From a bacterium BMS3Abin11 (GTDB lineage Bacteria; Pseudomonadota; Gammaproteobacteria; BMS3Bbin11): a stretch of 64,000 nucleotides of DNA. The stretch lies in NCBI GenBank assembly GCA_002897635.1, contig BDTD01000009.1, positions 54,754-118,753 on the forward strand, read 5' to 3'. Shown here piece after piece: positions 1-59,137 of the stretch. Made by a program: the position numbers and the translations under genes. The notes below the pieces were generated by a model. It had not been told where the DNA came from. It saw nothing but the letters and a program-made list of their open reading frames with translations, and ran no database searches. How positions within the stretch are numbered: the stretch's first letter is position 1; every line of letters begins with the position of its first letter.

Positions 1-529
1 TGGGCTAGACCAGCCCACTGCAGGCGAGATCACGGTTGCCGGGCAACGTCTGGATACCATGACAGCAGTGCAGCGAGCAGATCTTCGGTTGCATCATATC
101 GGTTTTGTTTTCCAGGCCTACAACCTGATACCTGTATTAAGTGCCCGTGAAAATGTAGAATTTGTCATGCAGTTACAGGGAATAGAGGAAAACCACCGCC
201 GCTCTCAAGCCTTAGAGATACTGGATCAGGTGGGTCTATCCCGCATGGAGAATCGCCGTCCTGCTGAATTATCCGGTGGGCAGCAGCAACGTGTCGCCGT
301 GGCACGAGCAATCGTCAGCAGGCCTGAACTCATCCTGGCTGACGAGCCAACCGCTAACCTGGACTCAGCCAACTCGGACAACCTAATGGAACTGATGCGG
401 GAGCTAAACAGCAACAGCAGAACGACTTTCATCATTTCCACCCATGACGAAGGCGTCATGAAATTCGCCAAACGCCTGGTGAGATTGCATGATGGCAGGA
501 TAGTGGGTGATGAATCAGTTGAAAGTTAA
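1..529 (+). CDS. ABC transporter ATP-binding protein (LolD/MacB-like), 5' end outside window
   Basis: Frame 2 is open from the window edge: [17 protein letters not shown]... Contains the ABC signature [14 protein letters not shown], Walker B ILADEPT and the H-loop STHD. Confidence 0.85.
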
Positions 530-693
530 GGGCGCCTCTATTAATTCATGAATAAGCATCTTGAGTCCAAAACCAGTTATCTCTGCGTTAAGAATCTTCG
601 CAATAGCTAGCTATTACGTGCGATCCTTGCCTTGATATGACAGTTTTTGAATCACAATCTGGCATATCCAGAATTAATAGAGGCGCCCTTAAA
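527..693. repeat. MITE-like intergenic repeat, family A copy 1 (TIR TTAAGGGCGCCTCTATTAATTC)
   Basis: A 22-bp terminal inverted repeat at 527-548 pairs with 671-693. The left end overlaps the TAA stop of the upstream ABC gene. Near-identical copy at 25408-25576 in inverse orientation. Confidence 0.8.
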
Positions 694-2127: not shown

Positions 2128-3783
2128 ATGACTGAAAGCACGCCACGACTCACCAACCTGCCCGCATGGAAAAAACTTCAGGCTCATTATGATGAGATTT
2201 CCAGTCTCCACATGCGTGAACTGTTCGCAAGCCAGCCAAATCGCTTCGAAGAATTTTCGATTACACTGGATTCTCTGTTTCTGGATTACTCCAAGAATCG
2301 GATCAACCTGAAAACTATGCAGCTGTTAACAGACCTGGCCAGGGAGTGTTGTGTCCCCGAAGCAATTGATAGCATGTTCAAAGGCGAAAAGATCAATACC
2401 ACAGAAGACCGGGAAGTTCTTCACACCGCTTTAAGAAGTGATATAGATAAGCCTTTCATCATTGCAAGCGGCGATGATGTGATGCCTGAAATCCGGGCAG
2501 AATTAGAGAAAATGAAAAGGTTTTGTGACGCTGTGCATAAGGGTGAAAACACCGGTCACACCGGCAAAACCTTCACCTCGATAGTGAATATTGGCATAGG
2601 GGGTTCAGATCTTGGTCCTCACATGGTGGTTAATGCCCTGAAGTTCTATCAGAAAGATCTTGATATCCATTTTGTATCCAATGTTGATGATGCCGATATA
2701 GCCGAAACACTGAAAAAACTTAACCCGGAAACTACACTGTTTATTATTTCATCAAAAACATTCACAACCTGGGAAACACTGACCAATGCCCACAGCGCCC
2801 GAGACTGGTTTTTGCAATCAGGGGCTAATCAGACCGCCCTGTCAAAACATTTTATTGCCGTCTCCAGTAATATCCCGGCCGCAACGGCTTTCGGTATTAC
2901 TGAGGAAAATATATTTGAATTCTGGGATTGGGTAGGTGGACGCTATTCCCTGTGGTCAGCGATTGGTTTATCGATTGCTCTGGCAGTCGGTTTTGACAGG
3001 TTCTCCGGGCTCCTCGCTGGCGCGAATTCGATGGACAAACATTTCAGGGAGGTTCCGCTGGAGAGAAATATCCCTGTCATTCTGGGATTACTGGGCATCT
3101 GGTACAATAATTTTTTTGGTGCCGATACGCAGGCGATAATTCCGTATGATCAGTATCTCCAGTACCTCCCGGCCTACCTTCAGCAGGCGGATATGGAGAG
3201 CAACGGCAAGCATGTTACGAAAGGTGGGGAAGAAGTCGATTACAGTACCGGCCCGATTATATGGGGTACGACCGGAACCAACGGCCAGCATGCCTATTTT
3301 CAGCTATTGCATCAGGGTACTCGTCTGATTCCGGTTGACTTTATCGCCCCAGTTGAATCATTGAACAATATTGGCATACACCATCGCCTGTTGATTGCCA
3401 ATTTCCTCGCACAGACGGAGGCACTGGTCAGAGGAAAAACCAGAGCTGAGGCCAGGGCCACACTGGAAAAATCCGGACTGAGCGAGAAAAAAATAGAGGA
3501 AATTCTTCCACATAAAGTCTTTCCCGGCAACCAGCCTACCAACACCCTGTTCTATCAAAAATTGACGCCCTGGAATCTTGGTGCCCTGATTGCCATGTAT
3601 GAGCATAAAATTTTCGTGCAGGGCGTGATCTGGGATATCAATTCATTTGATCAATGGGGGGTCGAGCTGGGCAAAAAACTTGCCAGGATAATCTACGATG
3701 AACTGGAAGACAGTGTACCTGTCAAAACGCACGGTCAGTCAACACGTGGGTTAATTAATTATTTTAAGAAAAAGTCACCTTAA
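2128..3783 (+). CDS. pgi: glucose-6-phosphate isomerase
   Basis: 551 aa with PGI motifs: IGIGGSDLGP, ISSKTFTT.ET, GGRYSLWSAIGL, QQADMESNGK, GTNGQHAYFQLLHQG. Confidence 0.95.
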   Translation: MTESTPRLTNLPAWKKLQAHYDEISSLHMRELFASQPNRFEEFSITLDSLFLDYSKNRINLKTMQLLTDLARECCVPEAIDSMFKGEKINTTEDREVLHTALRSDIDKPFIIASGDDVMPEIRAELEKMKRFCDAVHKGENTGHTGKTFTSIVNIGIGGSDLGPHMVVNALKFYQKDLDIHFVSNVDDADIAETLKKLNPETTLFIISSKTFTTWETLTNAHSARDWFLQSGANQTALSKHFIAVSSNIPAATAFGITEENIFEFWDWVGGRYSLWSAIGLSIALAVGFDRFSGLLAGANSMDKHFREVPLERNIPVILGLLGIWYNNFFGADTQAIIPYDQYLQYLPAYLQQADMESNGKHVTKGGEEVDYSTGPIIWGTTGTNGQHAYFQLLHQGTRLIPVDFIAPVESLNNIGIHHRLLIANFLAQTEALVRGKTRAEARATLEKSGLSEKKIEEILPHKVFPGNQPTNTLFYQKLTPWNLGALIAMYEHKIFVQGVIWDINSFDQWGVELGKKLARIIYDELEDSVPVKTHGQSTRGLINYFKKKSP

Positions 3784-3835
3784 GGACTCCCCTATAAATT
3801 CGAACCTGTTGATGTCAACAGACAATGCTTGATAA

Positions 3836-4660
3836 TCAGGATCCTTTACGCAATTTGAAAAAATAATTTGTCGCATCAACAAAACCATGCACACTACCAC
3901 AGTCATAGCGCATGCCGTTAAATTTTAGTGCCAGAACCTTTCCCTGCTTTGCAAGCGTATGTAATGCATCAGTTATCTGTAGTTCCCCACCCTTACCTGG
4001 TTTTGTTTCTCGCAAGGTATCAAAAATTTCAGGTATCAGAATATAACGTCCGATTATGGCCAGGTTGCCAGGTGCCTCTTCATCTGATGGTTTTTCGACC
4101 ATTCCGTTTACTTTGTACACGCCTTCTTCCAGTTCTTCTCCGTCTATAACACCGTATTTGTGTACTTCTGACATAGGAACTTCTTCAATAGCAATAATGC
4201 AAGCCGTTTGTTTTTTATAAAGGCTAAGCATTTGTGACATGACAGGTTCAGGATTACCTACACACAAATCATCTGCCAGAATGACGCCAAAGGGTTCATC
4301 GCCAATAAGGGTTTCACCTGTCAGAATAGCATGCCCCAACCCCTTCATTTCCAATTGCCGAGTGTAGGAGAAGGTACAATGATTGATTAGATGCCTGATA
4401 CCCGTCAGTTTGTTTTCTTTCGATGTACCACTGATCTGATGCTCCAGCTCATAGCTGATATCAAAATGATCTTCAATCGCGCGCTTGCTACGACCCGTTA
4501 CAATAGCTATCTGCTGCATGCCGGCTGCCAGTGACTCTTCTACACCATATTGAATAAGCGGTTTATCGAGTATGGGCATCATTTCTTTTGGCATGGCCTT
4601 GGTTGCCGGTAAAAAACGAGTACCATACCCCGCAGCCGGAAAAAGACATTTACGTATCAT
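3836..4660 (-). CDS. galU: UTP--glucose-1-phosphate uridylyltransferase
   Basis: MIRKCLFPAAGYGTRFLPATKAMPKEMMPILDKPLIQY is the GalU N-terminus. An ATG with a GAGGAG RBS sits 4 codons inside the TTG-initiated ORF. Confidence 0.9.
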   Translation of the reverse strand: MIRKCLFPAAGYGTRFLPATKAMPKEMMPILDKPLIQYGVEESLAAGMQQIAIVTGRSKRAIEDHFDISYELEHQISGTSKENKLTGIRHLINHCTFSYTRQLEMKGLGHAILTGETLIGDEPFGVILADDLCVGNPEPVMSQMLSLYKKQTACIIAIEEVPMSEVHKYGVIDGEELEEGVYKVNGMVEKPSDEEAPGNLAIIGRYILIPEIFDTLRETKPGKGGELQITDALHTLAKQGKVLALKFNGMRYDCGSVHGFVDATNYFFKLRKGS

Positions 4661-7156: not shown

Positions 7157-8548
7157 TTAATAATAATCGCCTGCTGCTTCAGCACTAATTGGATTGATGA
7201 AATTTTCGAACTTGGTGTATTCGCCAAAGAATGTCAGTTTTATCGTGCCGGTAGGACCATTTCGCTGCTTGCTGATGATAATCTCGGCTATACCTTTGTT
7301 CTCACTTTCCTCGTTATAGACTTCATCCCGGTAAATGAACATGATCAGATCAGCATCCTGTTCGATCGAACCCGATTCACGCAAATCAGACATTATCGGC
7401 CGTTTATCTGTGCGTTGTTCCAGACTTCGATTAAGTTGAGATAAAGCAATTACCGGTACATTAATTTCCTTAGCCAGTGTTTTCAGGTTTCTGGTAATTG
7501 CTGATAATTCAGTGGCCCGGTTTTCGGTAGTTCCACCGAGTGACATCAGCTGTAAATAATCGATGATGATCAGCCCCAGACCATCCTCATTCTGGCTTGC
7601 CAGGCGCCGGCAGCGTGCTCGAAGCTCAGAGGGACTCAGCCCTGGGGTATCATCGATATAAATCCTGCGCTGATCCAGCAGATTGATTGCCGACGTCAGT
7701 CGGGACCAGTCATCTTCCTGCAAAGCTCCGGTTCTAACGCGTTGTGCATTAATTCGTCCAAGGGAGGTAAGCATACGCCGAACCAGTTGTACTCCTGACA
7801 TTTCCATGCTGAAAATAGCGACCGCCTTATCACTACCAACGGCTACATTCTCTGCAATATTCATCGCCAGTGAGGTTTTTCCCATAGATGGTCGCCCGGC
7901 AACAATAATCAGATCTGAATCCTGCAGGCCTGTGGTCAATTTATCAAGGTCGGCAAAGCCGGTAGATAATCCGGTGAGTTCAGAACCAGATTTGAATAAT
8001 TCCTCTATCCGGTCGACCGTCTGTTTGAGTAACTTATTTACCGCAACAAAACCCGATCCATGTTTTGCGCCCTCGTCAGAAATGGCATAAATCTGCTGCT
8101 CGGCAAAATCCAGAATTTCCTTTGGCGAGCGGCCTTCAGGCGTAAAAATACTTTGATTGATGTCGTTCACCGAATTGAGCAGACGCCTCATTATCGAGTG
8201 TTCCTGCACAATCTTCGCATAGGCCGATATGTTGGCGGCACTTGGTGTATTGCGAGTCAGTTCATCGAGATAGGATAAACCGCCTGCTTTTTCCAGCTCA
8301 CCGCTGTTATCCAGATACTCCTGCGTTGTGATGACATCCGCAGGCATGGAATCTTCAATCAGCCTTTCAATTGATGCAAAGATCAGGCGGTGATCCCTGC
8401 GATAGAAATCATTGGCAACCAGAATATCCGCAACATCAACCCAGCGACTGCTATCGAGCATCAGGCCACCCAGCACAGACTGCTCGGCCTCAATCGAATG
8501 AGGTGGTGTTTTTAGCTCTGCGAGTTTATTTTCGGTACTATAAGACAA
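7157..8548 (-). CDS. dnaB: replicative DNA helicase
   Basis: IEAEQSVLGGLMLD N-terminal motif, Walker A GRPSMGKT, 463 aa. Confidence 0.95.
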   Translation of the reverse strand: MSYSTENKLAELKTPPHSIEAEQSVLGGLMLDSSRWVDVADILVANDFYRRDHRLIFASIERLIEDSMPADVITTQEYLDNSGELEKAGGLSYLDELTRNTPSAANISAYAKIVQEHSIMRRLLNSVNDINQSIFTPEGRSPKEILDFAEQQIYAISDEGAKHGSGFVAVNKLLKQTVDRIEELFKSGSELTGLSTGFADLDKLTTGLQDSDLIIVAGRPSMGKTSLAMNIAENVAVGSDKAVAIFSMEMSGVQLVRRMLTSLGRINAQRVRTGALQEDDWSRLTSAINLLDQRRIYIDDTPGLSPSELRARCRRLASQNEDGLGLIIIDYLQLMSLGGTTENRATELSAITRNLKTLAKEINVPVIALSQLNRSLEQRTDKRPIMSDLRESGSIEQDADLIMFIYRDEVYNEESENKGIAEIIISKQRNGPTGTIKLTFFGEYTKFENFINPISAEAAGDYY

Positions 8549-8714: not shown

Positions 8715-8729
8715 TGTCTGTTTTTGTTT

Positions 8730-8995
8730 AAGGAGCCTCTGATCAATTCTGCCATATCTCTGGCTTACAGGCTGATTCACAATCAAGGCGTAGCTTTGAA
8801 AGCATGCCTGGGCCTGGTGAAAAACTGCAACGCTGAGTGTGAATCAGCCTGTAAGCCCCGCAGGGCGAGGCCTGAAGCGCACATCTACGGCATTGTGCTT
8901 CTTGCAAAGGACCGGGCCATTCACTGCAAAGCACGCTTTGTAGCTGCACGCTTCAGGTCTCGCAGAGTTGTGGCTTAATTGGTCAGAGACTCCTT
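8730..8995. repeat. large divergent family-A-related element with nested inverted repeats
   Basis: Outer IR AAGGAGCCTCTGATC (8730-8744) pairs with GGTCAGAGACTCCTT (8981-8995); the termini TTAAGGAGCCTCT...CCTTAA resemble family A. Inside: a 19-bp IR (8757-8775 with 8837-8855) and a ~20-bp IR (8858-8878 with 8948-8966). Confidence 0.55.
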
Positions 8996-9005
8996 AATGT
9001 ATAAA

Positions 9006-9455
9006 CTACGACTCGGAAATTACCGTTACTTTAAGCGACAGATTGACTTCAGGGTGCAAGGAAATGTCAACACTATGCTCACCTACAACTTTAATAGCAC
9101 CTTCAGGAAGATTGACTTCTACCTTATCAAGTTCCTTGCCGATTACTGCGACAGCTTCAATGATGTCCGAAATGGTTACTGATCCAAAGAGTTTACCCTC
9201 TTCACTAGCGCGACGGGCAATTTCAATAGCTACATTTTCCAACTCAGCAGCACGTGCTTCAGCTTTAGCCAAAGCATCCATTGCATTTACTTCAAACTCG
9301 GCGCGGCGACTTTCAAATATTTCTTTGTTTTCCTTTGTTGCCCTGACAGCTTTACCCTGGGGTATTAGATAGTTACGTCCATAACCTGGTTTAACTGAGA
9401 CCTGCGCACCCAGATCGCCAAGGTTACGTATTTTTTCAAGCAGTATGATTTCCAT
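9006..9455 (-). CDS. rplI: 50S ribosomal protein L9
   Basis: MEIILLEKIRNLGDLGAQVSVKPGYGRNYLIPQGKAV..., 149 aa starting at the internal Met of the longer ORF. Confidence 0.9.
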   Translation of the reverse strand: MEIILLEKIRNLGDLGAQVSVKPGYGRNYLIPQGKAVRATKENKEIFESRRAEFEVNAMDALAKAEARAAELENVAIEIARRASEEGKLFGSVTISDIIEAVAVIGKELDKVEVNLPEGAIKVVGEHSVDISLHPEVNLSLKVTVISES

Positions 9456-9471
9456 CTGATTGGTCCTGTAT

Positions 9472-9702
9472 TCAACGATTGTGGTTGTCTGTATAAGGCA
9501 ACAGGGCGAGGAAACGCGCAATTTTTATAGCATTTGCTAGTTGACGTTGATATTTTGGCCTGGTGCCTGTATTACGACTTGGAATAATCTTGCCTGTTTC
9601 AGTAATGTAGGCCTTAAGTATTTCCAGGTCCTTGTAATCGATCTCGGTAATACCTTCAGCGGTGAAACGGCAGTATTTTCTACGGCGGTAAAAACGTGAC
9701 AT
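9472..9702 (-). CDS. rpsR: 30S ribosomal protein S18
   Basis: 76 aa, [12 protein letters not shown]...[31 protein letters not shown]. Confidence 0.95.
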
Positions 9703-9704
9703 GA

Positions 9705-10316
9705 TTATTCAGCCTCCTTTTTTTCTGTATCAGTAGCATCAGGCATATCAGCAGTTGTATCGTCAGCCGATTCGACCGCTACTTCCGCAGCTATTTCCTC
9801 TTCAGCGCCAGAGTCTTCAGTAACCGTATCAGCCGATTCAACCGGTATGTCTGCGGCTATTTCCTGTTCAGTCTCAGATGATTCCGCAGCCGCTTTCTCT
9901 GTTGGTTCTTTAGCTGTTGATGATTCCACTGCTGCAGCATTAGTGCTTGCCGATTCCTTGCTACGCTCTTCTCTACGCGGTGCCACCTCTTCTCTGACTT
10001 TTTCATTCATCAGATGAGAAGATTCTGTCACTGCACCATCTTTCTTTTGCACAAGTGAACGTATAATTGCGTCATTGAAACGGAAGATATTCTCAATTTC
10101 ACGCAGGACTTCCAGGCTGCACTCAATATTCATCAGAACATAATGCGCCTTGTGGATCTTCTTAATGGGGTATGCCAGCTGACGTCGACCCCAGTCTTCG
10201 AGTCGATGGATACTGCCGGAGGCCTCTTCGATGAGCGTTTTATAACGTTCGATCATCGCTGGAACCTGTTCGCTCTGGTCAGGATGGACCAGAAACACTA
10301 TTTCGTAATGTCTCAT
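9705..10316 (-). CDS. rpsF: 30S ribosomal protein S6 with long acidic C-terminal extension
   Basis: [25 protein letters not shown]..., an S6 fold of about 110 aa followed by about 90 aa of E/D/A/T-rich repeats. Directly abuts rpsR, with no priB between them. Confidence 0.9.
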
Positions 10317-11498: not shown

Positions 11499-11665
11499 CC
11501 AGGGAACCTCTGATCTATTCATGAACTCTTTTTTTACGCTTATAATATCCAGTTTCTTCGTTGCAAACCCTCGCAATAGCTATCTAATACGTGCAATTTT
11601 CACCTCAAATCTGCATATTTTAAATCGCAACCTATCTCGTCCAGAATAAATCAGAGGCTCACTGG
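11499..11665. repeat. family A MITE-like repeat, diverged copy 3
   Basis: Left end AGGGAACCTCTGATCTATTCATGAA versus copy 1 AGGGCGCCTCTATTAATTCATGAA. The internal TCGCAATAGCTATCTAATACGTGCAAT and the right-end CCAGAATAAATCAGAGGCTC are also shared. Fills the cpdA-trmJ intergenic space. Confidence 0.6.
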
Positions 11666-12591: not shown

Positions 12592-13383
12592 ATGAATCCA
12601 TTTCTCAATACTGCCATCAAGGCTGCCCGTCTTGCAGGCCGTGTCATTTCTTATAATGCTGAGCAACTGGACCGGCTGACTGTCACTGCCAAAGGCCATG
12701 CCGACTTTGTCTCAGAGGTAGACACTAAAGCAGAACAGGAGATCATTCACACCATCAAAGAAGCCTACCCGGAACATGCTATTTTTGCAGAAGAAAGTGG
12801 AAAGTCCGCAGGAAATGAGTTTGAATGGATTATCGACCCGCTGGATGGCACAACCAACTTCCTTCACGGCATCCCACAATTTGCGGTATCAATCGCCATG
12901 CGCGAAAAAGGCGTGCTCAAAGTCGCTGTAGTCTTTGACCCGATTAAGGATGAGTTATTTACGGCGGCAAAAGGTGAAGGCGCAGTATTAAATGATCGCC
13001 GCATCCGGGTTAGTGGAACCAATGATATGGAATATGCACTACTGGCGACAGGTTTTCCCTACAAAGACATGAAGAACCTGGACCTCTGGACAGACTGTTT
13101 TCGATCATTGTTACCGGAGACCAGCGGTGTCAGACGTGCGGGTTCTGCTGCGCTGGATCTTGCATGGGTTGCCGCAGGGCGTTATGACGGTTTTTGGGAA
13201 TTCGACCTGAATGCCTGGGACATTGCTGCCGGGGTTTTATTGATTGAGGAAGCTGGTGGCATGGTATCCGAAGTCGATGGCGGACGTGATCATCTGCTGT
13301 CAGGAGACATCATGGCTGCCAACCCGGCTATCTATAGAAAAATTTTGAGAAAACTGACACCTGTCGTACAAAAATACAGGTAA
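12592..13383 (+). CDS. suhB: inositol-1-monophosphatase
   Basis: IMPase motifs: FAEESG, WIIDPLDGTTNF, a WDIAAG-type C-terminus. Confidence 0.9.
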   Translation: MNPFLNTAIKAARLAGRVISYNAEQLDRLTVTAKGHADFVSEVDTKAEQEIIHTIKEAYPEHAIFAEESGKSAGNEFEWIIDPLDGTTNFLHGIPQFAVSIAMREKGVLKVAVVFDPIKDELFTAAKGEGAVLNDRRIRVSGTNDMEYALLATGFPYKDMKNLDLWTDCFRSLLPETSGVRRAGSAALDLAWVAAGRYDGFWEFDLNAWDIAAGVLLIEEAGGMVSEVDGGRDHLLSGDIMAANPAIYRKILRKLTPVVQKYR

Positions 13384-13395
13384 GGGCACCTCTAC

Positions 13396-15969: not shown

Positions 15970-15982
15970 AGACATAAAGAGA

Positions 15983-16004
15983 CCCCCCGGCAACCGTGCC
16001 GGGG
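15983..16004. terminator. hairpin shared by convergent mutS and the beta-helix gene
   Basis: CCCCCCGGCAACCGTGCCGGGG stem-loop. On the minus strand it is followed by a T-rich tract. Duplicated at 16963-16984. Confidence 0.5.
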
Positions 16005-16024
16005 AAGCAAACCGGTGATCGTTA

Positions 16025-16867
16025 TCAGTTATTGGTACCCACAGAGGTACCACCGGTAAACGGTATGGTGACATTGCTGGTGAGGTTGTCCATGTACTTG
16101 CCGCGGGCGCGGTCGTAGTAAATCCCATAATACACCCTGGTGATGCGGTTACCAACAACCAGCACATCGTTGGAATTTTCGATGCTTATCCCACGGGCGT
16201 TTCCGTTGCTGGGGGGGGGAACATCATCGATGCGGTTGCCCTCCACCACGGCGCCATTGGAAGAAAGAACCAACCCATATCCTCCAAAGCCGGCGGGTGT
16301 CGCCGCCGTGCCGCTGATGTCATTGTTGAGAGCCCGCCCTCCAGAGCCTCCGAGGCGGATACCATAGGCAGAGCTGTTCACCGTCGAGCCACCGGTATCT
16401 ACCACCCGGTTGCGGCGCACGATGTTGTCGCTGCCCTGGATATGTATCCCCATGAAGGTATTCCTGTCGGCGAGGATGTCTTCGATCAGATGGCCCTGGG
16501 AGGTGTAGGGGGGGGAGCTGTTATCCAGCAAGATTCCCTGGTAAAACCCGCGGATGGTGCCGTTACGGATGGTGATTTTCTTGCGATTCGAGGCATAGAT
16601 ACCGTTGACCGTAGTCCCGACTCCGGCGGGCTTACCGCCGAGCTTCCAGCCATTGAGGTCGATGGTGACGTTGTTGGCCTGGATCTCAATAGCATTGCCC
16701 GAGGTCATATTGGTTTTCAGGCTCCCGGTGAGGCAGTAGACTCCCTGGCTGGTGATGACAGTGGGCAGCGTAGTGATGGGAGTACAATTTACCGTCTCCG
16801 CCCAGGCAGCGGGGACAGCCAGCAACAGGATGGTCAGTTTCAGGTATTTGATTAGTCTTATTTTCAT
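16025..16867 (-). CDS. secreted right-handed parallel beta-helix repeat protein, candidate phase-variable
   Basis: Signal peptide (LLLAVPAAWAET). Repeated NxxIxxN / GxxxxxN beta-helix rungs. Two coding-strand poly-C tracts: C9 (16211-16219) encoding PPP and C8 (16518-16525) encoding PP. Confidence 0.7.
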   Translation of the reverse strand: MKIRLIKYLKLTILLLAVPAAWAETVNCTPITTLPTVITSQGVYCLTGSLKTNMTSGNAIEIQANNVTIDLNGWKLGGKPAGVGTTVNGIYASNRKKITIRNGTIRGFYQGILLDNSSPPYTSQGHLIEDILADRNTFMGIHIQGSDNIVRRNRVVDTGGSTVNSSAYGIRLGGSGGRALNNDISGTAATPAGFGGYGLVLSSNGAVVEGNRIDDVPPPSNGNARGISIENSNDVLVVGNRITRVYYGIYYDRARGKYMDNLTSNVTIPFTGGTSVGTNN

Positions 16868-16956
16868 GTTTTTCTCCTTTATTCAGTCAGATCAGGATAC
16901 ACCCGGATACACCCAGCAGCAAACTGACACATTGATCTATGCCAATGAAAAAGAGA

Positions 16957-17160
16957 CCCCCCGGCAACCGTGCCGGGGGAAGCAAACCGGTGATCGTTAT
17001 CAGTTATTGGTACCCACAGAGGTACCACCGGTAAACGGTATGGTGACATTACTGGTGAGGTTATCCATGTACTTGCCGCTGGAGCGGTCGTAGTAAATCC
17101 CAAAATCCGCCCTAGTAATGCGTTTACCGGCAGCCAGCATATCGTTGGAAAAGAGGATGG
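16957..17160 (-). pseudogene. truncated duplicate of the 3' end of the beta-helix gene
   Basis: Encodes ...SNDMLAAGKRITRADFGIYYDRSSGKYMDNLTSNVTIPFTGGTSVGTNN*, nearly identical to the last about 50 aa of the intact gene. Includes the duplicated terminator hairpin. The upstream sequence is unrelated. Confidence 0.6.
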
Positions 17161-18129: not shown

Positions 18130-19437
18130 TCACGCCGCAACGGGTGATTTAATAGAGGGGTCTTTAAGTATATCGACTTCACCTTCAGTACGCGCAATGA
18201 TGACGGCTCCGGATGAATCAGAAAAAACATTTACTGTGGTCCGGAGCATGTCGAGTATTCGATCGACGGCCAGGATGAGGCCGATTCCCTCCGCAGGAAG
18301 GCCTGCGGCGGCAAGGATAACAACAATGGCAACAAGGCTTGCTGCTGGTACTCCAGCTACACCTATCGAAGTAAGCAAAGCCGTAGTAACGATAAGAAAC
18401 TGCAGTCCCATGCTCAGGTCTATACCATAGGCCTGAGCGATGAATATGACAGCCACACACTCATACAGAGCGGTACCATCCATGTTTATGGTCGCCCCCA
18501 GCGGCAGGACAAAAGAAGACACCTTGTTAGACACCCCTGCCCGTTTTTCAACAGAATCAAGAGTAACAGGCAATGTCGCAGCCGATGAACTGGTAGAAAA
18601 AGCCATCATCAGAGCTGGTGCCATCGCCTGGTAGTGTCTCAATGGATTTACCCTGCCGATGAATACGAGCAGTAAAGGCAGGGTAATGACTGAATGAAAC
18701 AGCAGGGCAAGAAACACGGTTCCGGCAAAGTTTGCCAGCGGTATCACTGCATCATAACCGGTAGATGCCACAACTTTAGCGACCAGAGCAAATACACCGA
18801 TTGGGGCAAATTTCATCACAAGCTCGGTAATTTCCAGCATGATCAACATCATGGCCTGCCAGAAATTCGTCATCACAGAACCATATTTTGCAGGAATTCG
18901 AACCATGTAATAGGCAAAAAGAAGGCTGAATGTAATAATGCCAAGCATCTGGCCATCGGCAGCAGCCTTGATAATATTGGCCGGCAACATTCGTTCGAAA
19001 ACAGTAACAAAATCACCTGCACCCCTGCCCTGAGCGTTTTCTACAATGTGTGAAACATCTGCTTCCAGCCCCAGAAGGCTACCAGCAGGTACACCGTCCA
19101 CGACGCCGGGCACAATAAGGTTGACGAAAAACAGACCGGTCAGAATTGCCAGCAGGCTGGTAATAAAATAATAAATTACTGTTTTGGATCCCAGGCGTCC
19201 AAATCCCTTTCCAGTTCCTATGCCTGCTACGCCAGTAATGATAGATGCCATAATCAGCGGTACAATCAGCATTTTCAGGGCACTAAGAAACAGCCCTCCA
19301 ACAAAACTGTACATAGAATAAAAAGTAACGCCCCCTATGCTTGCTTCTGTTCCTGTTGCATACCCAAAAATAACCGCAAGAACCATAGCAATAAGAATTT
19401 GCCAATGTAATTTTAATTTAAACATACTGATCGTCAT
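18130..19437 (-). CDS. dicarboxylate/amino acid:cation symporter (DAACS family)
   Basis: 435 aa polytopic protein with hallmark re-entrant loop regions (...VAGIGTGKG..., ...GATINMDGTALYE...). Confidence 0.85.
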   Translation of the reverse strand: MTISMFKLKLHWQILIAMVLAVIFGYATGTEASIGGVTFYSMYSFVGGLFLSALKMLIVPLIMASIITGVAGIGTGKGFGRLGSKTVIYYFITSLLAILTGLFFVNLIVPGVVDGVPAGSLLGLEADVSHIVENAQGRGAGDFVTVFERMLPANIIKAAADGQMLGIITFSLLFAYYMVRIPAKYGSVMTNFWQAMMLIMLEITELVMKFAPIGVFALVAKVVASTGYDAVIPLANFAGTVFLALLFHSVITLPLLLVFIGRVNPLRHYQAMAPALMMAFSTSSSAATLPVTLDSVEKRAGVSNKVSSFVLPLGATINMDGTALYECVAVIFIAQAYGIDLSMGLQFLIVTTALLTSIGVAGVPAASLVAIVVILAAAGLPAEGIGLILAVDRILDMLRTTVNVFSDSSGAVIIARTEGEVDILKDPSIKSPVAA

Positions 19438-24276: not shown

Positions 24277-25407
24277 TTATTGAGTAATGAATTCTACCAC
24301 TTCCAGGTCGAATCCTGCCAATGAGTGCATAATTAATGGCGAGCCGCTAATCACCCGCATTTTTTTCACACCAAGATCCGACAGTATTTGTGAACCGATA
24401 CCAAAGGTTCTGAGGGTTTCCGGATCTGCAGAAACATTTTTGTCTTCATGATCATGCTGATTTTTTTCAACATTTTCCAGCAGCGTGTCTTTCAAACTGT
24501 CAAGCAAACCATTTTTACTGTCAGCATTGTTCAGGATAACCAGTACTGCATTTTCTTCATCTGCCATGTATTCCATCACATTGTTTATGGTCCAGCCTGG
24601 TTCCTCCTGCAGGTCACCCAGCAAATCATAGATTCCATTGTGAACCTGTACACGGATCACCGGCACGGTATCAGCGTCAATATCCCCTCGTACCAGTGCC
24701 AGGTGTTCACGATTGCTTAATGTGTCACGATAAACATTCGCTTTAAGCCGTCCGTAGCGGCTGTCAAAGTGCGTCTCGCCTTCCCGGCGCAACAACGAAT
24801 CATACTGTCTGCGATAACGAATCAGGTCTTCGATGGTACCAATACGTAGCTTGTGCTGCTTGGCGAATTCAAGCAAATCAGGCATGCGCGCCATGGTACC
24901 GTCTTCTTTCAGGATTTCACAGATCACACTGGCTGGTCGCAAACCAGCGAGTGCAGCAAGGTCGACCCCGGCCTCGGTGTGCCCGGCGCGGGAAAGCACC
25001 CCACCTTTTTGTGCCATCAGGGGGAATACATGCCCTGGGGTAATGATGTGATCCGCATGAACCTCTTCATTTACGGCGACTTGCACAGTTTTTGCACGAT
25101 CCGCAGCTGAAATGCCCGTTGTTACTCCTTCAGCTGCCTCGATGGAGACCGTGAAGTTTGTCGCATAGGGTGTACGATTATTGTTAACCATTAAAGGCAG
25201 ATCGAGCTTCCTGCAATGATCTTCTGTCAGCGTCAAACAAATCAGACCGCGTCCATATCGTGCCATAAAGTTAATGTCGTCAGGGGTGACGCATTCTGCT
25301 GCCATCAGCAAATCCCCCTCATTCTCACGATCTTCATCATCCATCAGGATGACCATTTTACCCTGACGCAAATCGTCCAGAATGTCTTCTATTTTATCAA
25401 GGCTCAT
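24277..25407 (-). CDS. ribB: 3,4-dihydroxy-2-butanone-4-phosphate synthase fused to a degenerate GTP-cyclohydrolase-II-like domain (RibBA/RibBX type)
   Basis: N-terminal DHBP synthase motifs ([11 protein letters not shown], the HTEA region). The C-terminal half lacks the Cys zinc ligands of active GCH II. Confidence 0.85.
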
Positions 25408-25576
25408 TTTAAGGGCACCTCTATTAATTCTGGATAGATCAGATTGTATTCCAGATTGTTCATATCAAGGAAAGAATCGCACGTAATAGCTAGCTATTGC
25501 GAAGATTCTTAACGCAGAGAGGGGGAATTTGGGATGCAAGATGAATATTCATGGATTACTAGAGGTGCCCTTAAGT
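25408..25576. repeat. family A MITE-like repeat copy 2 (inverse orientation)
   Basis: TTAAGGGCACCTCTATTAATTC at 25408-25430 and its complement at 25557-25576. The internal sequence is the reverse complement of copy 1. Ends 1 nt from the ribBA start codon. Confidence 0.8.
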
Positions 25577-25586
25577 TTCCGGATGG

Positions 25587-26264
25587 TTAGCGAACGGCAG
25601 TTCCGTCATCCATCATGTCGTGTATCTTTTCCAGCAGGGAATCGTCGCTATTTGCACGCCCCGTCACAATTTTTCCGCATTGAAGCATTCTTTCAAGGTA
25701 GCGCGCAATGATATCAACCTCTATATTAACGTGGCTACCCAGTTTGTAGTGCCCAATAATCGTTTCCTGTTGAGTATGTGGGACGATATTGACCTCAAAT
25801 TCATGATTATGAACAGCATTGACGGTTAGACTTACACCATCAATCGTCACAGAGCCCTTCTGTGCAACATAGCAGGCCAGCTCATTGGGCAACTGCACTC
25901 TCAGGCTAATTGATTCACCCACTGGCCGTATATCAAGCACTTTCCCCAGACCATCAACATGACCACTGACAATATGGCCGCCAAATCGTGTGTCTGGACG
26001 CATTGCCAGCTCCAGATTTACTGGACTGTCGTGTTTCAACTGTCCCAGTGTGGTACGAGAAAGGCTTTCTGCTGAAACATCCGCCTCAAAACCATCTGCT
26101 GCGAATGAAACAGCCGTCAGGCAAACACCATTTACCGCAATGGAGTCACCTATTCCCGAATCACTGAGATCAAGCCTGCCGGTATAGATGCTGATTCTGG
26201 CGTCACTCCCTTTACGCTGAAGGCTGATGGTTTTGCCCGTGGCTTCTATAATTCCTGTGAACAT
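25587..26264 (-). CDS. ribE: riboflavin synthase
   Basis: MFTGIIEATG... twofold internal repeat, 225 aa. Confidence 0.9.
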   Translation of the reverse strand: MFTGIIEATGKTISLQRKGSDARISIYTGRLDLSDSGIGDSIAVNGVCLTAVSFAADGFEADVSAESLSRTTLGQLKHDSPVNLELAMRPDTRFGGHIVSGHVDGLGKVLDIRPVGESISLRVQLPNELACYVAQKGSVTIDGVSLTVNAVHNHEFEVNIVPHTQQETIIGHYKLGSHVNIEVDIIARYLERMLQCGKIVTGRANSDDSLLEKIHDMMDDGTAVR

Positions 26265-39088: not shown

Positions 39089-40903
39089 ATGTCTTTAAAT
39101 AACAAGTACGTCACCTTCCTGCTTTCTGTTTCGATATTTATCTTATTCTTTAGCTTTTTTTTTATTACATCTAATATTCTACCTCAGGGTGCAGGCCCAG
39201 ACTGGAAATCGAATACCGATGTAACAAAATTTATCTATGAAAATGGCAGGCTGGCAGTTCTCCCTGATGACGAAAAGGATTTGCACTTCACGGTTTATGG
39301 TGGCACGCGGGCACTAAGACCGCCCCTTTCCTATATCGTGTCCGCAGTTGCTGCAAAAGCTCTTGCATTCACCAATCTTGATTCATATGTGCTGTTTCGC
39401 AAAGGATCCGCACTTTTATGTGCCTTAGCCCTGGCTCTAACATTTTATGCTCTGAGTATTTACTTTAACAGTTATGCAATTGGGATTTTGGGCTCCACAA
39501 TTATAGGTCTAATGCCGCAATTCACTTTCATTGCTTCATATAATAATGATGACAGCGGTGCAATTTTCTCTGCCACACTTATGATTGCCGTGCTGGTTCG
39601 TATATACCGTTATGGGGCATCAAATACCAATGCAATTTTACTCGGCCTTGCTGGCGGACTAGTCGTGCTTTCAAAGATGACTGCATGGCTATTAATGCCA
39701 TCTGTCGTTCTATTTCTAATCATTTTCTTCCGGTCTCCTGTGCGCTCACTACTGCGTTACGCCTCCATTGCAGGAGTGGTCTTTATTCTAGCTGGCGGCT
39801 GGTGGTTTGCGTTTAACACCTATCACTATGGGATCGATGATCCACTGCTGAAAAAAATTACCACCACAGTAATAGAGCAGCACAGGCGTCTGCCACCGGG
39901 TTCAGGTGTAGGATTTGCCGCACAGGGAATAGGCTTTTATGAATTATTTGCTGAAAACTATAAAAATTTCCTCGGCGAAACGGCTAAGGCAACCATCGGT
40001 AATCTGGACTGGCTAAAGCTAAAAGTTGGCCCGCTACAGTACACTGTCTATCTGGGTATTTTCTTTTTTGCCCTGTTCTATTATTTTTTCAGCCTATCGG
40101 CATATCTGATAAAACGATTCAGGAATGTAACCGTAAATGATGAACATACCAGGCAGTTAATATTCGAATCACTGCTGCTGTTGATGATAGTTTTTCAGAT
40201 AACCATGTATACCTGGACCAATATCAATAATGATATACAGATACAGGGAAAATACATCATCCCTATTTTTCTTGCCATCCTGCTTTTATTCTTTTCCGGA
40301 ATATATCGATTACCGGGAGTGACCGCCGTTTCAATCAGGAAATTGTCTGAATCGGGTTTCCCTGTAAACGCTTCAAATACTGGCAGGTTTGGTGTATTTT
40401 TGGCAAGCCTGATGTTTATTGTCTATGTACACTGGGATGCATGGCAGAATTATATCATCCCATTTTATCAACCACCTGCGTATGATATAAAGCTGGGAGA
40501 ATTTCATTCTATTCCACTAAATTTAGATCTGAACCAGCGCGCAGATAATCTGGATATACGAGAAACCGGTGGAGGTATTGAGTATATTTCCACAGGTAAA
40601 GACCCAAAAGTCATCTTTAAAAAGGATATCTGCCAGAAGATTTCAACAACATCGATGTTATATCTTGAGTTTAATGCAAAGAATGCAGACACCCTCCAGT
40701 TCTTCATCGATGAAGGTGGAGGTTTTTCGGCGAATATTTCATCCACTGCTACTTATAAACAGGGAGACAACACCCTTTTGCTCCCAATTTCAGCTAACAA
40801 GTGTCAATATCTGCGTTTCGATCCATTTATCGAAAATGGGACATTCATCCTGAAGAAATTTAAGATTGCACCAATGACGATTGTCCCAAGACGAAAGAAT
40901 TAA
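39089..40903 (+). CDS. GT-C glycosyltransferase of the ArnT/PMT (GT39/GT83) type
   Basis: 604 aa. First-loop DDEKDLHF and RPPLSY motifs, about 12 TM helices, a C-terminal about 150-aa soluble domain. Divergent from the GT2-deacetylase operon. Contains a T9 tract near the 5' end. Confidence 0.7.
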   Translation: MSLNNKYVTFLLSVSIFILFFSFFFITSNILPQGAGPDWKSNTDVTKFIYENGRLAVLPDDEKDLHFTVYGGTRALRPPLSYIVSAVAAKALAFTNLDSYVLFRKGSALLCALALALTFYALSIYFNSYAIGILGSTIIGLMPQFTFIASYNNDDSGAIFSATLMIAVLVRIYRYGASNTNAILLGLAGGLVVLSKMTAWLLMPSVVLFLIIFFRSPVRSLLRYASIAGVVFILAGGWWFAFNTYHYGIDDPLLKKITTTVIEQHRRLPPGSGVGFAAQGIGFYELFAENYKNFLGETAKATIGNLDWLKLKVGPLQYTVYLGIFFFALFYYFFSLSAYLIKRFRNVTVNDEHTRQLIFESLLLLMIVFQITMYTWTNINNDIQIQGKYIIPIFLAILLLFFSGIYRLPGVTAVSIRKLSESGFPVNASNTGRFGVFLASLMFIVYVHWDAWQNYIIPFYQPPAYDIKLGEFHSIPLNLDLNQRADNLDIRETGGGIEYISTGKDPKVIFKKDICQKISTTSMLYLEFNAKNADTLQFFIDEGGGFSANISSTATYKQGDNTLLLPISANKCQYLRFDPFIENGTFILKKFKIAPMTIVPRRKN

Positions 40904-40924
40904 TAGAGGGGCCCTTCAGTCTTA

Positions 40925-53380: not shown

Positions 53381-54940
<1,560 letters not shown>

Positions 54941-59066: not shown

Positions 59067-59137
59067 TGTAGGTGCGAATTCATTCGCACAGCGATGCCAA
59101 TGTTTATGCACATTGTGCGAATGAATTCGCACCTACA
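59067..59137. repeat. palindromic repeat family B copy 2
   Basis: TGTAGGTGCGAATTCATTCGCACA at 59067-59090 and its complement at 59114-59137. Arms are identical to copy 1 but the loop differs. Confidence 0.75.

Follow-up and report, generated by a model that had tools for sequence, protein, structure and literature searches.

What are the short, palindrome-like sequences that fill several of the gaps between genes in this DNA, and how did they come to lie there? The window, meaning the whole 64-kb stretch analysed (positions 54,754 to 118,753 of contig BDTD01000009.1, from the gammaproteobacterium BMS3Abin11), contains three copies of a family referred to here as A (167 bp), one copy of a family referred to as B (about 272 bp), and at least four decayed fragments. 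With a probability of about 0.9, these sequences are non-coding, non-autonomous miniature inverted-repeat transposable elements (MITEs) that are moved in trans by an IS5-family DDE transposase. The reading is based on their inverted repeats, on a 4-bp duplication of the target, on precise empty sites in relatives, and on the existence of autonomous insertion sequences (ISs) with the same ends. MITE-like dispersed elements at gene boundaries had been proposed in the initial annotation of this DNA, and the empty sites, the 4-bp duplication and the cognate IS5-family transposon described below bear this out. An element consists of an 18–20 bp terminal inverted repeat (TIR) at each end and a palindrome-like interior, set between the two copies of a 4-bp, A/T-rich target duplication for which TTAA is the commonest sequence. 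The family is apparently undescribed, although of a well-known kind; a full-text literature search with the end sequence, read in either orientation, gave nothing but primers and unrelated matches. The findings leave the current understanding of MITEs unchanged, and are mildly notable for ends that hardly vary between phyla, a duplication that preserves the stop codon, the upkeep of the hairpin and a possible role of the end as a ribosome-binding site.

Copy 1 of family A (526–692, plus strand) has a 159-bp core (530–688) with inverted repeats, GGGCGCCTCTATTAATTC, at 530–547 and 671–688. It is flanked by an ABC-transporter ATPase gene (59–529) and by a gene for an outer-membrane-type protein of unknown function. 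The TAA stop codon of the ATPase gene (527–529) is contained in the TTAA on the left of the core (526–529), and a second copy of this target-site duplication is found on the right (689–692). Copy 2 (25409–25574, minus strand; core 25413–25570, TTAA at 25409–25412 and 25571–25574) separates ribE (25587–26264) from ribBA (24277–25407), both on the minus strand. The true TIR, GGGCRCCTCTATTAATTC, is 18–20 bp long and is present at both ends of both copies. The two copies can be aligned over the full 167 nt, with 83% identity; they do lie in opposite orientation, as first described, but are not the near-identical pair that they were taken for. A search of the window with the 22-mer TTAAGGGCRCCTCTATTAATTC, with up to three mismatches, gave five matches, and none in 100 shuffled versions of the window.

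Junctions without the element have been found for both copies. In loci L126 to L130, the spacer between ribE and ribBA is only 11–21 nt long and the element is absent; the relatives of the copy 2 locus (RibBA 93, 92, 90 and 87% identical) share the gene order. The closest of them (L126, RibBA 93% identical) reads taaccatccggaaacTAAAaATG at the junction, and the window sequence with copy 2 and one TTAA removed is taaccatccggaaacTTAAaATG, which has the same length. This absence from L126 implies that copy 2 was inserted only after the two lineages (RibBA 93% identical) had separated. Copy 1 is absent from L266 and L267 (downstream protein 94 and 80% identical, respectively), which have a single TTAA at this point, and the L267 sequence, gaaagTTAAacatcaaa, is exactly what the window would read here without copy 1 and one TTAA. 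The species is uncultured; its RibBA protein is the same in three metagenome-assembled genomes and in two metagenome assemblies of marine origin, and its nearest named relatives are Arenicellales.

The boundary between element and target was established in other genomes. One genome per species was scanned with the pattern TTAAGGGCNCCTCTANTAAT, which includes TTAA, and at least 120 loci were obtained; by chance, about 17 matches would be expected in the entire collection. Many of these matches are inverted pairs enclosing 49–320 bp, and several are found where contigs end, as is usual when a repeat interrupts an assembly. Because this pattern contains TTAA, metagenomes were scanned with the TIR alone, GGGCACCTCTATTAATTC, again with at least 120 loci. 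The flanks of 69 paired metagenome elements (71 before 8 nt of flank was required on each side) were then compared. Identical 4-nt flanks were present in 45 of the 69, against a permutation mean of 7.7 and a maximum of 15, and in 26 of these 45 the flank was not palindromic (TTTA, TAAA, ATAA, TAGA, AGTA, ACGC and others); none of the 69 had identical 5-mer flanks. The consensus of the target site is T-T-A-A, with TTTA, TAAA, TATA and ATAA also common. The flanks thus indicate that the inverted repeat begins at GGG and that TTAA is a 4-bp target-site duplication. It is not the start of the termini, as had first been assumed, and it stands on both flanks in only 15 of the 71 metagenome elements.

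A full-length transposon with the same TIRs, which the initial annotation had suggested looking for, does exist. Locus L121 (1468–3128) has the TIRs and TTAA flanks around a gene for a 356-aa protein that matches the IS5-family model NF033581 with 298.5 bits (cut-off 140) and contains the PF05598 and PF01609 domains. More than 7,800 homologues of this protein were found at E ≤ 1e-60. In a group of 1.3-kb ISs (L132–L144), the homologues are 74–82% identical to the L121 protein (79 and 74% for the two that were fetched), and the IS ends are GGGCATCTCTAATAATTC and GGGCATCTCTAAAAATTA. Transposase fragments adjoin the TIRs in L020, L031, L067 and L086. A more distant relative (56% identity) on the Rhodobacterales plasmid NZ_CP049040 has ends GGGCGCCTCGAAAAATTG and direct AATC/AATC flanks. 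Searches of protein clusters for an IS name returned only 'IS5 family transposase'.

The IS loci of P0142 and P0239 were also considered as evidence for the target duplication, and were not used because their flanks were inconsistent between contigs, probably as a result of nested repeats or chimeric assemblies. In the P0142 contigs (L132–L141), the left flank is constant and includes a 230-aa open reading frame (ORF) with no Pfam match, whereas the right flanks vary; the 1.3-kb IS may be nested in a larger repeat here, or mis-assembled.

The closest well-studied system is IS5 of Escherichia coli. Its transposase, InsH, matches the same NCBIfam model, NF033581, and has the same PF05598 plus PF01609 architecture as the transposases found here, although InsH1 is only 29% identical to the L121 protein. 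The partner ISs resemble those of the IS5 group in their length of about 1.3 kb, and IS5 itself makes a 4-bp YTAR target duplication (PMC5009759). The duplication has the same length here and the favoured TTAA fits YTAR, but the target is looser and A/T-rich in general, and the ends differ (GGAAGGTGCGAATAAG in IS5, GGGCRCCTCTATTAATTC here). The window elements differ from IS5 in being non-coding derivatives.

Hundreds of further copies occur in other genomes and metagenomes, as would be expected of a dispersed repeat. For family A, 53 distinct near-full-length copies were collected, and full-length homology of 72–86% extends to genomes labelled Arenicellales, Methylococcales, Chromatiaceae, Thiotrichaceae and others. 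Core sizes are 158–161 bp in family A and 262 bp in family B; like MITEs in general, the elements are short and non-coding, and no transposase-like sequence was found in or near them. The family B element of the window (8728–8997, plus strand; TTAA 8728–8731, core 8732–8993, TTAA 8994–8997) lies between dnaB (7157–8548) and rplI (9006–9521), both on the minus strand, and its ends have drifted to GGAGCCTCTGATCAATTC. It had been described as an enlarged variant of family A at 8730–8995. The element is real, but it belongs to a separate family of about 272 bp with related ends; its interior is unrelated to that of family A and matches, at 64–71%, a family of this size in Thiotrichaceae, Thiodiazotropha, Pseudohongiella and Gilvimarinus.

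The same ends enclose still other interiors, which fall into size classes in the metagenome sample, with cores of about 99, 141, 180, 204 and 218 bp. Some mini-elements of about 57–67 bp have little beyond their two ends (L075 6496–6552, L056 862–927, L008 2990–3056), and mini-elements elsewhere have cores of 49–99 bp. At the other extreme, a Rhodobacteraceae metagenome genome (L081 5760–7563) has a cargo-carrying non-autonomous element, in which a BrnA antitoxin gene, but no transposase, lies between the two TIRs. The Thiotrichaceae genome NORP24 accounts for 10 of 120 loci among the matches listed. Paired elements were found in genomes labelled as ten phyla (Pseudomonadota, Chlorobiota, Campylobacterota, Planctomycetota, Cyanobacteriota, Latescibacterota, Lentisphaerota, Nitrospirota, Bacteroidota and Ignavibacteriota), and the isolates that carry them include Chlorobium ferrooxidans DSM 13031 and Gilvimarinus xylanilyticus. 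Ends that are nearly identical in about ten phyla suggest a very successful IS5 lineage, which would have been transferred horizontally and, to judge from the sequences, would have spawned non-coding derivatives repeatedly.

The position of the elements between genes is also a general feature. All four full elements of the window (three of family A, one of family B) lie between co-directional genes. In 986 kb of retrieved DNA, of which ORFs cover 83.5%, 185 of 214 TIR ends lie outside ORFs, and none of the 53 family A copies lies inside one. The TAA of TTAA was said to be frequently the stop codon of the host gene, and this is so: in the genome sample, the TAA of a neighbouring gene falls exactly within TTAA at 18 ends. 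About 7 would be expected from unoccupied non-coding TTAA sites, 7.1% of which overlap a stop codon. Five ends of this kind were found in the metagenome sample, which was collected without TTAA in the pattern. The target is A/T-rich and biased towards TTAA, and such sites are presumably common in spacers, where they would often hold a TAA stop codon. The 4-bp duplication would rebuild this stop, leaving the upstream protein unchanged, and insertions within genes would be purged by selection. Target bias, stop regeneration and purifying selection together may account for the placement at junctions, and no special targeting would be needed. A duplication that contains TAA would allow a transposon to insert at a stop codon without harm to the protein.

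The start of the downstream gene raises a different question, which is best followed at ribBA. Copy 2 was reported to adjoin the ribBA start codon, and it does: on the gene strand it ends in ...AATAGAGGTGCCCTTAA-A-ATG, with a single nucleotide between the terminal TTAA and the ATG. The gene is now preceded by ...AATAGAGGTGCCCTTAAAATG, and the ancestral upstream bases (ccggaaac) have been displaced 170 nt further upstream. Each element end carries an outward-facing, Shine-Dalgarno-like AGAGGTG, and the GAGGTG located 8 nt before the ribBA ATG is the only motif of this kind within 20 nt. The outward-facing AGAGGTG may replace a displaced Shine-Dalgarno sequence, as at ribBA, where it is a plausible ribosome-binding site on the basis of its position. 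Other long ORFs have an ATG 0–7 nt past an element end (seven in genomes, three in metagenomes). It is conceivable, though rather doubtful, that the element is built to do no harm in operons, or even some good, by acting as a portable translational-coupling module, in which TAA would be regenerated, a Shine-Dalgarno sequence would face outward 3–10 nt from the next start codon, and the two ends would pair in the transcript. If so, the compensatory upkeep of the hairpin described below would reflect selection for coupling, or for folding during transposition, and coupling could help to explain why the end is nearly unchanged in about ten phyla. At the ribBA junction, the replacement of a ribosome-binding site by a transposon end could be put to the test.

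Several observations weigh against the interpretation of the elements as MITEs moved by an IS5-family transposase, or against parts of it. The 64-kb window contains no transposase gene. With the sampled ISs, families A and B have only the ends in common, over about 20–30 nt; this comparison covered four full ISs (L121, L133, L142 and L131), among which no direct parent was found. Mobilisation in trans is something that we infer from sequence. TTAA is palindromic, so that the window by itself cannot separate a duplication from a longer inverted repeat, and the 4-bp length of the duplication rests on other genomes. Many of the hosts are binned metagenome genomes, and the breadth across phyla may be somewhat inflated. 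Nothing points to recent activity: the 17% difference (83% identity) between copies 1 and 2 indicates old insertions, and the five contigs of the species that were sampled all have the same sequence of copy 2, which is therefore fixed there. As for the ribosome-binding site, the predicted fold buries the GAGGTG of copy 2 in a 19-bp stem that pairs both ends of the element. The ribE stop codon lies 12 nt upstream of this stem, and a ribosome terminating there could unwind it and expose GAGGTG. Start codons 0–7 nt beyond element ends are not depleted, so that this zone, usually a sensitive one, is not avoided; they are enriched about twofold in the genome sample only, with no enrichment in the metagenome sample, and this is too little to decide for or against the Shine-Dalgarno idea. 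On present evidence, the case for a Shine-Dalgarno role is weak.

The interior of family A could be read in another way. Its copies are imperfect palindromes, 73% identical to their own reverse complement and centred on CGCAATAGCTAGCTATTACG, and copy 2 with its flanks folds with −47.4 kcal/mol (z = −3.2). In an alignment of 18 family A copies (A2), 90.8% of the pair cells hold standard pairs, and both sides have changed in 20 of 45 pairs, as compared with 11.5 ± 1.6 after shuffling (the observed value was reached in 0 of 500) and with 7–11 pairs in slid controls. Swaps between subfamilies (AAG/CTT, GCAAATT/AATTTGC, GCTAAG/CTTAGC) can be seen by eye in 49 copies. A hairpin that is long and stable, whose arms have been kept complementary by compensatory change across subfamilies from different orders, in which asymmetric motifs are conserved (GCGTT, GCCTTG, CAATAG/CTATTA), and of which every full window copy lies inside an apparent operon, might be expected if the 167-nt unit were primarily a structured RNA with a function of its own (as an intercistronic stabiliser, a processing site or an attenuator, for instance), with transposon-like ends that are incidental. 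This explanation is nevertheless clearly unlikely, given that the spread of the elements is explained by precise insertions that duplicate 4 bp and by ends common to IS5-family ISs. Nor is there a strand-specific RNA signature in the family A alignments, in which G-U pairs are no commoner than A-C mismatches. Family A copies are not significantly oriented with respect to the flanking genes (14 sense, 6 antisense), and 13 lie between divergent genes. The lack of both a G-U excess and an orientation bias makes the constraint look symmetric rather than that of a strand-specific RNA gene. No Rfam family was matched by the window at the gathering score except tRNA, and four family A loci, searched at E ≤ 1, produced nothing beyond a spurious microRNA-hairpin match, at 27 bits where the gathering score is 117. 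The sigma-70 promoter scan of copies 1 and 2 was negative, and the terminator scan of these two copies gave a single terminator-like match, inside copy 1, at chance level. The target of a symmetric constraint could be the DNA itself or a transcript in either orientation, and quasi-palindrome correction during replication offers a non-selective alternative for the upkeep of the hairpin. In a MITE of the kind proposed here, the interior hairpin is probably kept for mobility or for tolerance inside transcripts.

Small, palindromic and intergenic elements are also what is seen in repetitive extragenic palindromes (REPs) and their doublets (REPINs), which are spread by an IS200/IS605-like transposase, the REP-associated tyrosine transposase (RAYT), and a genuine REPIN-like family is present in the window, at 1991–2059 and 59067–59137. 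Family A resembles these repeats in its short, palindromic, intergenic form. However, REPINs have a GTAG-plus-hairpin unit, which family A lacks, and are moved by an HUH enzyme with no target duplication; the long TIRs (18–20 bp) and exact 4-bp duplication of family A are not produced by single-strand HUH transposition, and the same ends flank DDE transposase genes of the IS5 family. A REP/REPIN origin is therefore very improbable. Fortuitous similarity, or a vertically inherited regulatory palindrome such as an operator, is scarcely credible at all: two of the fragments (13381–13394 and 18145–18167) are individually weak, but the shuffled windows gave no match, full-length homology of 67–86% is found at unrelated loci and in unrelated genomes, and the corresponding junctions of close relatives are without it, so that the empty sites contradict inheritance by descent.

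Comparable elements are known from other bacteria. The Correia elements of Neisseria (CREE or NEMIS) are about 100–160 bp long, with inverted repeats and a short A/T target duplication, TA (2 bp). They lie beside or between genes, are co-transcribed with them and form long hairpins, and are textbook MITEs that affect the expression of their neighbours; the functions reported include promoters, IHF binding and RNase III processing. To our knowledge, no cognate transposase is known for them. They differ from the elements described here in the sequence of their ends and in the length of the duplication (TA as against 4 bp). Scans of copies 1 and 2 for sigma-70 promoters and for terminators were negative. 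A MITE of Porphyromonas gingivalis has reportedly been linked to an IS5-family IS. It is of the same kind (short, non-autonomous and IS5-linked), with unrelated sequence; unlike it, the families described here occur in many phyla with nearly invariant ends.

The remaining copy of family A and the fragments are more decayed. A third, diverged copy had been reported, and it is found at 11502–11662 (plus strand), where the genes on either side, both on the minus strand, encode a SpoU methylase and a metallophosphoesterase. It is 67% identical in the alignment (nhmmer E = 4e-9), its ends are GGGAACCTCTGATCTATTC and GTGAGCCTCTGATTTATTC, and its flanks (ccca/tggt) no longer match. Two solo termini described initially are also present. 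The first, a probable end remnant at 13381–13394 (plus strand), is an exact 14-mer, TAAGGGCACCTCTA, for which about 0.001 chance matches are expected. It fills the gap between mutS and the upstream, suhB-like gene of the inositol-phosphatase family, from the TAA stop codon of the latter to a point 2 nt short of the mutS ATG (13396), and the relative L129 is without it. The second, TGAAGGGCCCCTCTATTAATTC at 40897–40918 (minus strand), matches at 20 of 22 positions and encodes the last two codons and the stop (40901–40903) of the ORF at 39089–40903. The label 'ArnT-like' given to this ORF was not confirmed, as it has no Pfam match at E ≤ 1e-5. Two further fragments had not been listed initially. 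An end-like remnant at 18145–18167 (plus strand, TGATTTAATAGAGGGGTCTTTAA) is a weak match of about 80% and sits within the 3' end of a transporter ORF (18130–19437, minus strand). A possible mini-element at 3780–3846 (plus strand) begins with a TTAA containing the pgi stop codon (3781–3783) and is made up of a pair of degenerate ends set back to back; its left end-like piece is at 3780–3801, and its right end was judged by eye. In the syntenic region of the relatives, solo end remnants lie at other junctions (L129 12085–12102; L126 14313–14330 and 6323–6340), one of them 5 nt before the called start of thiL, from which it appears that decayed ends persist directly upstream of genes.

The surroundings of copy 1 have some peculiarities of their own. 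The inverted repeat extends about 13 nt past TTAA (513–547 with 671–705; 9 of 13 complementary). As copy 2 has no such extension, the longer palindrome was taken to be due to chance and was rejected as a feature of the element. Downstream, at 693–719, the window has about 17 nt (tgatttttactacagagg) that are not present in L267 (2438–2500), with AGAGGA just before the ATG of the outer-membrane-type gene. In L268 (2324–2500), the spacer at this junction is 177 nt long and contains an end-like sequence, AAAATAGAGGTGCTCTATAG, and repeated cacagagga units. The spacer downstream of copy 1 seems to be a recurrent insertion site.

For work on such genomes, the elements account for several odd spacers between genes in the genome of an uncultured marine member of the Arenicellales, and they break metagenome assemblies, as the many matches at contig ends illustrate. 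The end sequence GGGCRCCTCTATTAATTC together with the 4-bp duplication provides a simple marker for masking, and the presence or absence of an element can serve as a strain or lineage marker.

Other repeats are found nearby. The two REPIN-like loci (1991–2059 and 59067–59137) each consist of a pair of inverted arms of 24 nt (TGTAGGTGCGAATTCATTCGCACA, with GTAG before a hairpin) that stand 21–23 nt apart; the arms are 100% identical between the loci and have the form of a REP doublet. This second repeat, AGGTGCGAAT, was considered as kin of the E. coli IS5 end and rejected, its GTAG-plus-hairpin REP form making the likeness coincidental. Between mutS and a dsbC-like gene (15976–17150), the window has about 1.3 kb of extra DNA where L129 has only about 70 nt. 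This DNA is bounded by 175-bp direct repeats (16001–16175 and 16976–17150, 92% identical), each preceded by an identical 29-mer, AAAGAGACCCCCCGGCAACCGTGCCGGGG, and holds a NosD/beta-helix ORF (16025–16867, minus strand). A tandem repeat of 64–66 nt (75% identical) lies at 9763–9892, within a minus-strand ORF at 9705–10316.

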